Notes: a model not told the origin generated them from the sequence alone. Shown: positions 60,991 to 62,666, counted from the stretch's first letter. The stretch: 64,000 nucleotides of DNA from Escherichia phage vB_EcoM_3HA14 (MN342151.1); one strand, 5' to 3'. Made by a program: numbers and translations.

Positions 60991-61073
60991 TGGCATGGGA
61001 CGGAGGATTCGAACCCCTTTGAGTAAGTTTTGGAGGCTTACGCACATGCCTTAGTGTCTTAACATCGTCCCAT
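60991..61073 (-). tRNA. tRNA-like gene, possibly Trp (CCA), atypical D region
   Basis: perfect acceptor ATGGGAC/GTCCCAT and T-arm; candidate anticodon loop CTCCAAA; about 7 extra nt in the D region. Confidence 0.3.
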
Positions 61074-61238
61074 ACTATATTTCGAAGCTTACCCTGTTAT
61101 CTCAACACTGTCAAGCTTCTTCTCAGATTATTTACATGTTCTGGAAAACATGAGATACAGACCACCTCCTTATGAGATTGACTCTTTCAAGTCAATGCGG
61201 AGACCCATAAAGGTCGTCATAGTAATCTGCTAACTAAT

Positions 61239-61310
61239 TGGCAGTCAAGGTAGGAGTCGAACCTACTTACTATTAAAGGGAGCTACCCTTCAGCAACTAT
61301 CCGACTTTCG
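61239..61310 (-). other. tRNA-like element with intact T-arm but truncated body (possible pseudo-tRNA or tRNA-derived RNA)
   Basis: T-arm GTAGG-TTCGACT-CCTAC, acceptor 3' strand and CCA present; only about 68 nt, no convincing anticodon arm. Confidence 0.3.
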
Positions 61311-61367
61311 TTTATCTCTTAACGCGTATCCAAGATAACTTACTCGTGTTGTCTTGACCATTAAAAT

Positions 61368-61444
61368 TGGCACACCCTACAGGATTCGAACCTGTAACTG
61401 ACGGTTTAGAAGACCGTTGCTCTATCCGTTTGAACTAAGGGTGC
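61368..61444 (-). tRNA. tRNA-Arg (UCU)
   Basis: acceptor GCACCCT/AGGGTGT, anticodon stem ACGGT/ACCGT, loop CTTCTAA. Confidence 0.7.
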
Positions 61445-61691
61445 ATTATCTTTAAAGGCTCTCTTAGAAAACCCTTAAAGATGCCCACTTTATTAATCAT
61501 ACCGTGGGCTAGTACGCCAAATTCTTTAACAGGGAGTTGGAATACCCTGCTGGTGTTTAGCCTATTAAGCTACTGCCAGAAAAACATTATCGTTTGCATT
61601 TATTTTTAAGTTTTTAAAATAGACGCTACGCTAACGAAAACTAAGGTTATCTTAAAGTGGTCACATCTAAATGTCAACAACTTTATGAAAT

Positions 61692-61766
61692 TGGTTGTAG
61701 GTGAGGGTATCGAACCCTCTTCTAACGGTTATCAGCCGTTTGCATTACCATTTATGCTAACCCACA
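61692..61766 (-). tRNA. tRNA-Ile (GAU)
   Basis: anticodon stem AACGG/CCGTT, loop CTGATAA; T-arm GAGGG-TTCGATA-CCCTC. Confidence 0.65.
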
Positions 61767-61768
61767 AT

Positions 61769-61845
61769 TGGAGGTTCAGGTGGGAATCGAACCCACATTC
61801 ATAGGGCTTATGAAACCCTTGCATTACCTTATCTGCGACTGAACC
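61769..61845 (-). tRNA. tRNA-Met (CAU)
   Basis: acceptor GGTTCAG/CTGAACC, anticodon stem AGGGT/GCCCT with three G-C pairs, loop TTCATAA. Confidence 0.65.
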
Positions 61846-61926
61846 ATTATAAGTTGCCCCTTTGTAGAGAACTGATTGAGTGGGTGTTTCCAGCCGCGCA
61901 TGTGTTCTTCAGTTAAGGGGCGAATT

Positions 61927-62002
61927 TGGTAGAAGTGGAGGGATTCGAACCCGTCGCCTGTCAGATTAAAAGTCTGCCGCATCACCATTCTGCTACACTT
62001 CC
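61927..62002 (-). tRNA. tRNA-Lys (UUU)
   Basis: anticodon stem CAGA/TCTG, loop CTTTTAA; same weak T-stem as the 60475-60550 paralog. Confidence 0.55.
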
Positions 62003-62173
62003 ATTAAATCATCTTTGCAGTAACCTACGCAAACCTTGCTAAAGGGTTTGTAGAGTCATCTCTTATAAGCTAATCTAGAATCATGCTCAAGAGACTCTTC
62101 GGCACTCATGGGACGACTGGTTAGCTCCATAAGTCACTGCAAAGAGGATTACCAGACCGTATTTATCTTAAGT

Positions 62174-62242
62174 GCTTCCATTACACCAACACGCCGTAAC
62201 GTGTGAAGGAATCGAACCTTCGCCTTTTCTTTACCAGAGAAA
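62174..62242 (-). other. rearranged tRNA-like fragment
   Basis: T-arm (GAAGG-TTCGATT-CCTTC) and anticodon-like hairpin (TTTCT-CTGGTAA-AGAAA) present, but no matching 5' acceptor strand; a D-arm-like GGTGTAATGGAAGC lies 3' of the T-arm. Confidence 0.3.
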
Positions 62243-62256
62243 TAGATTGTTTATTG

Positions 62257-62285
62257 TTTGCTGTAAACGGTCTTCTGTAAAATTG
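62257..62285. repeat. tRNA-spacer repeat, copy 1 (TTTGCTGTAAACGGTCTTCTGTAAA)
   Basis: near-identical copies at 62801-62825 and 62964-62990, degenerate copy at 62342-62366; shares ACGGTCTTCT with the anticodon arm of tRNA-Arg(UCU). Confidence 0.6.
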
Positions 62286-62426
62286 TTGGAACCAGACCAA
62301 GTTTTAAATTTTTCAAATTAAATTGGCTTGAAATATTAAAATTGCTTGCTGTATTTGGTCTTCTGCTCCTTTAAAGAATACTCGTAAGAACTCTTTAAGG
62401 GAGGGGCTAAAAAGCCCTCTCAAATT

Positions 62427-62503
62427 TGGCGGTTACGAAGGGATTCGAACCCTCATCATCCTCCGTGACAGGGAGGTATTTTGACCAGTTAAACTACATA
62501 ACC
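62427..62503 (-). tRNA. tRNA-Asp (GUC)
   Basis: acceptor GGTTATG/CGTAACC, anticodon stem CCTCC/GGAGG, loop CTGTCAC, G73. Confidence 0.7.
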
Positions 62504-62509
62504 TTTATT

Positions 62510-62597
62510 TGGTGCGCCGTGAAGGAGTCGAACCTCCCGAGTCATAATGACAAGTGATTTACAGTCACCACCGCTTCCATCTACGGGATAACGACGC
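62510..62597 (-). tRNA. tRNA-Tyr (GUA), long variable arm
   Basis: 88 nt; acceptor GCGTCGT/ACGGCGC, anticodon stem GGTGA/TCACT, loop CTGTAAA, variable-arm hairpin GTCAT/ATGAC. Confidence 0.7.
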
Positions 62598-62666
62598 ATT
62601 TTATTCTATTCAGGCTAAGGACTTGCACCTTACAAATCGGTGAGCAATCGCTTCTCTCCCAAATCT

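Follow-up and report, generated by a model that had tools for sequence, protein, structure and literature searches.

Between the tRNA genes of Escherichia phage vB_EcoM_3HA14 (MN342151.1) lie tRNA-like sequences that are not recognizable tRNAs, which raises the question of whether they are debris of the array or RNAs in their own right. In the 64,000-nt stretch analyzed here (the window), the minus strand encodes 26 canonical tRNAs from position 58124 to 63155; ARAGORN and Rfam called the same set. A sequence-only reading had picked out four aberrant loci between these genes and considered them decaying pseudogenes or tRNA-derived structured RNAs. All four were present as described, on the minus strand, and are referred to below as E1 to E4. 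Their sequences suggest that these 'aberrant' elements are several different things, most of them held by selection: the second proposal suits E3 and probably E2, neither suits E1, and decay is a possibility only for E4. The best-supported account, in which we have moderate confidence, is that the array contains a hidden tRNA-Trp together with a Y-RNA-like family partnered with a Ro60-like protein.

Over this region the closest match was Shigella phage Sf17 (98.6% identity by megablast), which places the array among the Felix O1-like phages of the Ounavirinae. The comparison set comprised 26 orthologous arrays from IMG/VR, reached through the conserved gene upstream of the array, and GenBank relatives. 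Depositor annotations of these relatives hold canonical tRNAs only and leave the inter-tRNA gaps empty, and every gap element of the window was kept among the fetched orthologous arrays: E1, E3 and the large gaps in at least 24 loci, E4 in 11 and E2 in six related ones. The comparison with orthologous loci that the sequence-only reading had proposed found E1, E2 and E3 in 235, 24 and 247 phage records with compensatory changes, and E4 in 106 records without them. None of the four was called as a tRNA by default ARAGORN or Rfam, and the output of relaxed ARAGORN was mostly noise. Automated tools thus did not resolve them as ordinary tRNAs; E1 and E3 were called only once an insertion had been removed or a permutation undone. 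In the records listed, E1, E2, E3 and E4 were not annotated as such under the match, nor were the stem modules and tag-encoding RNA described below.

E1 (60991-61073, minus strand) is very probably a maintained tRNA-Trp with an unusual, fixed insertion in the D region. Its sequence (ATGGGAC-GA-TGTTAA-G(A)CAC-TAAGGCAT-GTGC-G-TAAGC-CTCCAAA-ACTTA-CTCAA-AGGGG-TTCGAAT-CCTCC-GTCCCAT-G-CCA) forms a cloverleaf. Its 7-bp acceptor stem (ATGGGAC/GTCCCAT) is followed by G73 and an encoded CCA; the D loop contains GG, the anticodon CCA (61033-61031) sits in the loop CUCCAAA, and the T loop reads TTCGAAT. The perfect acceptor and the roughly seven extra D-region nucleotides noticed earlier were both recovered. 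Six of the extra nucleotides are the insertion TGTTAA (61064-61059), which separates position 9 from the D stem, and the seventh is an A bulged out of that stem. Two mismatches are present (C31.A39 and A49.C65), and the anticodon loop measures 7 nt, or 9 nt if C31.A39 is taken as unpaired.

The pattern of change among relatives is that of a selected cloverleaf. The CCA anticodon, the TGTTAA insertion and the bulged A did not change in any relative, and the anticodon loop reads C(C/U)UCCAA(A/C) throughout, with U33 present. The stems changed on both sides, from TAAG/CTTA to ACGG/CCGT in the anticodon stem, from CAC/GTG to CTC/GAG in the D stem and from G-C to T-A in the T stem. In total, 90.5% of cells in the cloverleaf were paired, against 27-50% in controls with shifted base-pair partners (slid controls, used for the pairing counts of E1 and E3), and six pairs in the D, anticodon and T stems were changed on both sides, against none in the slid controls. 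A small hairpin (UGU/ACA) within the insertion was contradicted by the substitutions observed.

Gene finders would miss E1 because of the 6-7 conserved extra nucleotides between position 9 and the D stem, where the standard two-nucleotide connector of positions 8-9 runs straight into the stem. Default ARAGORN returned tRNA-Trp(cca) once TGTTAA was deleted and made no call with TGTTAA kept; the Rfam tRNA model RF00005 gave no match at E<=10, the best match being tRNA-Sec at 18.5 bits, and none of the 60 records listed (of 235) had a tRNA annotation under the E1 match. The identity elements of E. coli TrpRS are A1-U72, G73 and the CCA anticodon. E1 resembles canonical E. coli tRNA-Trp in these respects, in its covarying cloverleaf, in the CUCCAAA loop and in the encoded CCA, with A1-U72 replaced by G1.U72 in three of 11 distinct sequences; it differs in the UGUUAA before the D stem, the bulged A, the two mismatches and its escape from detection by ARAGORN and the Rfam tRNA model. 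Tryptophan is the sole amino acid without a tRNA among the 26 ARAGORN-called genes of the window, so that E1 would complete a 20-amino-acid tRNA set for the phage. Its transcription would come with the rest of the array, RNase P would process the transcript, and the host TrpRS would charge it with tryptophan.

The gap between E2 and E1 (61079-61235, minus strand) has features of its own. Its 3' 92 nt are kept in 27 loci and include the hairpins TTGACT-TGAAAG-AGTCAA and CATGTT-TTCCAG-AACATG as well as, immediately before E1, a promoter-like TTGACA-N17-TAAGCT. A second candidate promoter has its -35-like TTGACT inside the 3' acceptor strand of E2.

E3 (62149-62280, minus strand) has a different architecture, that of a circularly permuted tRNA-like RNA inside a closing stem. 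The frame consists of two helices, H1 (TTAC/GTAA) and H2 (GACCGT/ACGGTC), with the internal loop AGAA/UG between them, and of the single-stranded ACAGCAAAC. Above it stand, in order, the V hairpin (TTTCT-CTGGTAA-AGAAA, 62242-62226), the T arm (GAAGG-TTCGATT-CCTTC, 62221-62205), the acceptor 3' strand (ACACGTT, 62204-62198), a two-nucleotide linker AC, the acceptor 5' strand (GGCGTGT, 62195-62189), U8 and G9, and the D arm (GTGT-AATGGAA-GCAC, 62186-62172), followed by the 3' strand of the stem. The sequence between T and D arms is thus a 7-bp acceptor stem capped by a loop. The sequence-only reading had seen the T arm, the anticodon-like hairpin and a D arm displaced to the 3' side of the T arm at 62174-62242, which holds for 62172-62242, but had missed the loop-capped acceptor and the module of 62280-62149 that surrounds them.

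Joining the 5' acceptor strand and D arm of E3 to the hairpin, T arm and 3' acceptor strand restores the un-permuted order, and default ARAGORN then called a canonical cloverleaf for all three versions of the acceptor found in relatives (ACACGTT/GGCGTGT, ACTCGGC/GTCGAGT and ACCCTTC/GAAGGGT, each a 7-bp helix). In the third, Moogle-type version, GCCA follows the 3' acceptor strand. Across 14 distinct sequences the acceptor helix was 100% paired, with three pairs changed on both sides and one pair seen as A-U, U-A and C-G, and the T and D arms were invariant. The hairpin breaks in these same sequences, and its loop varies in sequence and length (CTGGTAA, CCGGTAA without U33, the 6-nt CGGTAA, CTGATAA, CTATGAA and CTATAAA), with a different hairpin in the Moogle type. 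Because the acceptor stays paired and the T and D arms are invariant while the hairpin and its loop drift, what is selected in E3, a permuted RNA derived from a tRNA, is its acceptor/T/D 'upper half' and not decoding. It was annotated in none of the 40 records listed (of 247), and the Rfam tRNA model scored it at 28.8 bits, just under the gathering score of 29, in an alignment that is wrong and not permuted.

Permuted tRNA genes are known from Cyanidioschyzon merolae, green algae and Thermofilum, and E3 shares with them a 3' part that precedes the 5' part, a short acceptor linker, a cloverleaf restored on un-permuting (in the three variants) and a plausible origin by tandem duplication (for context, see PMC4238349). 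Unlike them, it has neither a conserved functional anticodon nor a bulge-helix-bulge junction (the junction is H1-AGAA/UG-H2 and not 3-4-3), it resides in a bacterial host without splicing endonuclease, and it is broken at position 26/27, where it opens into a long conserved stem. A reading in which E3 matures into a decoding tRNA-Thr(GGU) in the manner of the permuted tRNAs of red algae, by stem-aided cleavage and ligation (for example by host RtcB) and a later opening of the acceptor loop, would agree with the canonical cloverleaf and 7-nt loop (CU-GGU-AA) of the un-permuted window copy and with a flanking stem that brings positions 26 and 27 together. We regard it as highly improbable, given that the anticodon loop is unconserved, the stem is not a bulge-helix-bulge, the array already has a tRNA-Thr(TGT), and the same stem encloses non-tRNA sequence elsewhere.

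That stem recurs three more times upstream of E3, which is itself module D, around AT-rich sequence; the module pattern was counted four times in the window, against 0.06 expected. Module A (62913-62987, minus strand) has H1 TGAC/GTCA, the AGAA/UG loop, H2 GACCAA/TTGGTC and ACAGCAAAC, with an AT-rich, variable interior devoid of a tRNA-like insert; module B (62753-62824, minus strand) has H1 TTAC/GTAA and H2 GGCCGT/ACGGTC; and module C (62288-62369, minus strand) has H1 GGAGC/GTTCC, H2 GACCAA/TTGGTC and ACAGCAAG. A covariance model built from E3 (R1) scored modules A and B at 34.9 and 51.2 bits. Every Felix O1-like locus has all four modules in the same positions; the copies differ in H1 without loss of pairing (TGAC/GTCA, TTAC/GTAA, GGAGC/GTTCC), and module B shows compensatory exchange between TTAC/GTAA and TTGC/GCAA across relatives. 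G.U pairs in H2 are tolerated only in the sense of the array strand, so the module is an RNA structure of the tRNA strand. The 5' strand of every module reads (U/G)ACAGAAG(A/G)CC, with CAGAAG in the internal loop and no CGAA. A variable but compensated helix beside an invariant single-stranded motif has the appearance of a protein-recognition element.

Other identities for the modules were considered and set aside. For a hairpin ribozyme or another self-cleaving ribozyme, AGAA and CUGGU resemble strings of the hairpin ribozyme, but the loops are 4x2 and not 4x4, with no equivalent of loop B, and Rfam ribozyme models gave no match on the modules. The AGAA/UG loop did not fit the kink-turn, loop E or bulge-helix-bulge consensus, and a promoter reading of TTTACAG... 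had one weak match, with total sites not above those of shuffled sequences. Modules of a loosely similar layout to the Felix O1-type H1/loop/H2 also occur in non-Felix phages: in six loci (L037, L038, L073, L081, L128 and L136), the tag-encoding RNA discussed below is bracketed by CAAC-AGGT-AAGAGCATT ... AGTGCTCTT-TCC-GTTG modules, some of which enclose a hairpin and a T-arm-like hairpin with no ARAGORN call. The two flanks are mutually complementary and could close the tag RNA itself.

A candidate protein partner is encoded upstream on the same strand. The 3' part of the gene lies at 63321-64000 (minus strand) and runs off the window; its end is 1,041 nt from the start of E3 at 62280, with E3 downstream. 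The full-length protein has 471 aa in relatives, carries DUF2828 and vWA/DUF7788 domains (Pfam) and belongs to PHROG 850, 'RNA-binding protein'. Comparison with PDB sequences gave no significant match, the only hint being Ro60 at the MIDAS motif (E = 1.1). In an AlphaFold model of a 94%-identical homolog (pLDDT 84.8, pTM 0.85), the top 10 Foldseek matches in the PDB were all Ro60/Rsr/TROVE proteins over the full length (E 3e-8 to 1e-6), followed by vWA-domain matches only (E >= 3e-3). The gene is the ortholog of gp130 of Felixounavirus Bas63, a Ro60-like protein that counters the uncharacterized ppl defense system according to a 2024 preprint, which also guessed that some annotated tRNAs may be Y RNAs (PMC11482910).

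The bacterial Y RNA YrlA provides the closest comparison for E3. It is defined by an end-pairing stem, a less-conserved V and a near-invariant T and D flanking a sequence-variable acceptor-like stem-loop, and by a Ro60 gene no more than 4 kb away in the same orientation (PMC4201824). E3 has the module order of the YrlA RNAs of Salmonella, Mycobacterium smegmatis and mycobacteriophages (PMC4201824) and of the Ro60-Yrl system of Thermus phage phiLo (PMC12135203): T and D are near-invariant, the acceptor-like stem varies but stays foldable, a Ro60-fold gene lies within 4 kb on the same strand, and several sister RNAs share the stem. M. smegmatis YrlA, which also has a 7-bp acceptor stem, is cleaved by RNase P and gains CCA in vivo (PMC4201824). 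E3 departs from YrlA in having CAGAAG in an AGAA/UG loop and single-stranded ACAGCAA in place of GNCGAAN0-1G/CGAA, and in being interleaved, like its sister modules, with a functional tRNA array; the protein is a shorter relative (471 aa) of the DUF2828 type, like Ro60 in fold and a candidate partner by linkage.

Distant phages retain a similar arrangement. In loci whose Ro60-like protein is 32-42% identical, the gene lies inside or beside same-strand tRNA arrays, and R1 found a full-length homolog in one of them (43 bits, E ~1e-8) with the same part order, ACAGCAA retained and H2 fully compensated (GGCUGC/GCAGCC). In other loci R1 gave weaker matches, which followed the Ro60-like gene by 15 nt or 735 nt or preceded it by about 1 kb; their H2 differs yet is paired (GAAUGC/GCAUUC, GAGCAC/GUGCUC), and ACAGCAA is kept.

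On these observations, E3 is probably a YrlA-type, Y-RNA-like RNA in which an end-pairing stem, an AGAA/UG loop and ACAGCAA carry a permuted tRNA-like domain above them. The stem and motif would be bound by the phage Ro60-like protein encoded 1 kb upstream, and the tRNA-like domain would recruit, or mimic a substrate for, tRNA-recognizing factors. With its 7-bp acceptor stem, E3 is probably cut in the acceptor loop by RNase P, as M. smegmatis YrlA is, which would leave a two-piece RNA. Modules A-C would be sister RNAs with the protein-binding stem but lacking the tRNA-like domain, analogous to YrlB or to the multiple Y RNAs of other systems.

Several points weigh against the combined account of a hidden tRNA-Trp and a Ro60-partnered RNA family. 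Most of the compared sequences are closely related, so that several of the 'compensatory' counts go back to only a few changes in evolution: about three lineages account for the acceptor of E3, and a single event for E2. The tryptophan gap was counted within the 64-kb window, and a tRNA-Trp may be encoded elsewhere in the genome; an insertion of the E1 type also has no precedent known to us, which bears on its fit with TrpRS, EF-Tu and the ribosome. The predicted likeness of the protein to Ro60 is at the level of fold only. GNCGAAN0-1G was absent from the 5' strands of E3 and the modules when these were read by eye without a pattern search, the related CAGAAG alone being seen, and the Rfam YrlA model RF02553 had no match on E3 at E<=10 or in the distant Ro60-like loci. 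Scanning with tRNA, tmRNA and Y-RNA models, as had been suggested, was the right direction, but the Rfam YrlA and tmRNA models stayed below threshold. The weaker R1 matches, at 17-22 bits, are marginal. Since similar modules occur in phages with no Ro60-like gene in the short stretches fetched around their tag-RNA-flanking stems, the module stem could serve as a signal for processing in general and not for the binding of a protein. The account as a whole draws on sequence, conservation, covariation, a Ro60-like fold and linkage, from which we infer expression, processing, binding and charging.

A more far-reaching version of the Y-RNA-like account is possible, and we advance it tentatively: Felix O1-type and other tRNA-rich phages would carry a full Ro60-type ribonucleoprotein (RNP) that has so far escaped notice, made of the divergent DUF2828 protein and a family of Y RNAs with the compensated stem and ACAGCAA, in which E3 is opened by RNase P into a two-piece, CCA-bearing tRNA mimic and the RNP counters ppl. 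A further step of this proposal would see the stem and UUACAGCAA in the Class I RNAs of Dictyostelium as the sign of a shared protein partner. In Rfam, modules A, B and D score 17-22 bits with the model of Dictyostelium Class I RNA, well under its gathering score of 41.5. The consensus of that family has a short end-pairing stem, CUUACAGCAA and a terminal CUG, and it shares the 9-mer UUACAGCAA with the phage modules. DUF2828 proteins are said to occur in eukaryotes. The likeness in UUACAGCAA may be a coincidence or a shared protein-binding motif.

Among the explanations that separate E3 from the Ro60-like protein, the one that survives best, although unlikely, is that E3 is the junction of two partly deleted tandem tRNAs, kept as an RNase P or other processing signal. 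Its linkers of 2-8 nt and the Moogle-type GCCA resemble the normal inter-tRNA spacer of the array, R1 weakly matches true tRNA-tRNA junctions in the window, and tandem duplication is the accepted route to permuted tRNA genes. Under such an origin, however, the upstream 'tRNA' would lack its 5' half and the downstream one its 3' half, and yet the acceptor strands, which belong to different copies, co-vary; E3 is moreover enclosed by a covarying stem and motif common to three other modules, and its same-order homolog in a distant phage is also accompanied by a Ro60-like gene. The authors who described YrlA themselves cautioned that tandem-tRNA junctions can be false positives (PMC4201824).

The proposal that all four elements are functionless tRNA pseudogenes left by turnover of the array requires a closer look at E2 and E4. 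E2 (61239-61306, minus strand) had been described as an element of about 68 nt without an anticodon arm ending at 61310; the length and the missing arm stand, and the end lies at 61306. Its acceptor stem (AGUCGGA/CUUGACU) has two G.U pairs and one mismatch, a single 6-bp hairpin with a 5-nt loop replaces the D and anticodon arms, the T arm is identical to that of the neighboring tRNA-Met, and GCCA follows. In relatives 119 of 126 cells were paired, with one compensatory pair (G-C to U-A or the reverse) and two one-sided changes that preserve pairing; an alternative fold with a D arm is disfavored by a G13-to-A change. E2 is part of a 132-nt cassette found only in Mooglevirus and Suspvirus relatives and missing as a clean indel from one locus (L004). 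It is probably a maintained, reduced tRNA-like RNA, with an acceptor/T minihelix, one hairpin and an encoded CCA, and a pseudogene is unlikely.

E4 (62608-62664, minus strand), placed earlier at about 62605-62665, has the degenerate T loop TGCAAGT that had been reported, in a T-arm-like hairpin closed by an acceptor-like stem (ATTTGGG/CCTGAAT), and no CCA. Its 106 records are all at least 90% identical, and in none of them does an intact tRNA occupy the site. One G.U pair changed to A-U with pairing kept, compensatory changes were absent, the same arrangement arose in 43 of 5,000 shuffles (0.9%; a post hoc test), and the fold had a z-score of -1.65. E4 may be a reduced tRNA-like minihelix, or a further reduced or decaying copy.

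Decay of all four elements would accord with the presence or absence of E2 and E4 as cassettes among relatives, with the fold of E4, which is not significantly stable, with its T loop, which is off consensus at conserved positions and has changed further from C to T in one relative, and with the rejection of all four by default tools. It is nevertheless quite improbable, and for E1 and E3 we reject it: their helices are kept by compensatory changes of which the slid controls have none, the CCA and insertion of E1 are invariant across 235 records, the acceptor of E3 was replaced three times with pairing kept between invariant T and D arms, and E2 is paired in nearly all of its cells.

A further RNA in the array lies in the gap between tRNA-Ile and tRNA-Arg (61483-61643, minus strand). 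Its open reading frame (61597-61565), within AUAAAUGCAAACGAUAAUGUUUUUCUGGCAGUAGCUUAAUAG, encodes ANDNVFLAVA followed by two stop codons, and a promoter-like site (61677-61649) has its -10 element about 7 nt before a conserved 5' box. Its likeness to transfer-messenger RNA (tmRNA, ssrA) comprises the resume-codon context AUAAAUGCAAACGA, an ssrA-like degron of 10 residues, the position of the stop codon within a covarying helix-5-like hairpin and, downstream, two covarying pseudoknot-like elements, whose pairings were read by eye. Seven of its 17 predicted pairs are compensatory, tag changes in relatives are limited to GAT/GAC, one V-to-A and TAA/TGA, and 12 of 12 tag variants fit the ssrA-degron pattern A-N-[DE]-x-x-[FYVM]-L-[AM]-[AV]-A. 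Unlike tmRNA, it has no adjacent acceptor stem with G3.U70, no T arm and no 3' CCA. The hunt for a tRNA-like domain met orphan T-loop motifs near the tag RNA in several phage families, with no acceptor pairing or consistent arrangement. Blastn found no similarity to E. coli ssrA. Neither ARAGORN nor Rfam called a tmRNA at threshold, and the 36.5 bits given by the Rfam tmRNA_permuted model (gathering score 47) came from an alignment that takes in the T arm of tRNA-Ile. Genome announcements report an ARAGORN 'ssrA' in Moogle and Felix O1, and a curated survey names no such phage.

The core of this RNA occurs in 579 phage records of unrelated families, including the late leader of HK620, Klebsiella phages of about 46 kb, N4-like phages and Kuttervirus, with homologs also in loci L037-L040 and about 30 IMG/VR loci; unlike cellular ssrA, it is found in phages and prophages, and 350 of 5,426 complete E. 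coli genomes (6%) contain it. A collection scan with 14-mers gave mostly chance matches, which were filtered by profile. In the records listed none had an RNA annotation there, and most had no feature at all. The RNA thus appears to be a widespread, unannotated, tmRNA-like tag-encoding RNA without a tRNA-like domain. Downstream of it in Kuttervirus bering (L039, about 1700-1860) are orphan T-arm-like hairpins, and a stretch of about 125 nt is closed by a perfect 7-bp AGCCGTT/AACGGCT followed by CCA, with no ARAGORN call; these may be further non-canonical tRNA-like RNAs.

The least probable of the explanations sees in E3 (or E2) the missing tRNA-like piece of a split tmRNA, which would perform trans-translation together with the tag RNA (61643-61483) as its coding piece. 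It matches the part order of two-piece tmRNA genes (Rfam tmRNA_permuted consensus) and the tmRNA-like coding-domain features of a tag RNA that has no such domain of its own, but E3 has no G3.U70 and a discriminator that varies (A or G), about 550 nt and three tRNA genes separate the two, a reading of both sequences, with no search aimed at it, showed no complementarity between them, many phages have the tag RNA but no E3 (R1 was empty in HK620, BUCT541, bering and TR2), and E2 is absent from most Felix O1-like phages that carry the tag RNA.

Small RNAs of other kinds are transcribed together with a phage tRNA cluster, and processed from it, in T4, whose stable species 1 and 2 (rnaC and rnaD) are not tRNAs and have tRNA-like 3' features. 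The elements of the window resemble them, by description only, as small stable RNAs from a tRNA cluster; T4 is not known to us to encode a Ro60-like protein.

Other gaps of the array are also structured. The spacer of about 150 nt between module D and tRNA-Lys (62003-62148, minus strand) is conserved, and its ends are joined in a long-range helix (the window has CTTTGCAG...CTGCAAAG, Felixounavirus TCTTTGTAGATAAG...CTTATCTACAAAGA) that covaries between lineages around a wholly different interior, and looks like another structured RNA. The gaps 61846-61926 and 60635-60887 (minus strand) both end at the 3' side in CAGTTCTCTACAAAG, which in one of them pairs with an upstream TAGAGAATTG; the 253-nt gap between tRNA-Ser and tRNA-Leu is kept in 27 loci, and in some relatives (Michonne) an HNH endonuclease gene takes its place or splits it. 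Directly after tRNA-Asp (62372-62426, minus strand) comes a G+C-rich hairpin, GAGAGGGC-TTTTT-AGCCCCTCCC, and then a second hairpin, CTTTAAAGAGTTCTTACGAGTATTCTTTAAAG. Both are kept in all relatives, the second with a compensatory change from AGAG/ATTC to GGG/ATCC, and they directly precede module C.

For the biology of these phages, the tRNA array would thus hold more than standard annotation records. A probable tRNA-Trp is missed in at least 235 phage genomes, and with it the amino acid cover would rise from 19 to 20. The tag RNA, tmRNA-like but devoid of a tRNA-like domain, deserves attention for its presence in hundreds of enteric phages and in 6% of complete E. coli genomes. The preprint on the Ro60-like anti-defense protein named no Y RNAs (PMC11482910), and E3 and its three sister modules now offer concrete, unannotated candidates. 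Their stem, AGAA/UG loop and ACAGCAA, together with the predicted RNase P cleavage, make the RNA half of this anti-defense system testable. If the proposal of a full Ro60-type RNP is true, an RNP rather than a protein alone would counter the ppl defense of the host.

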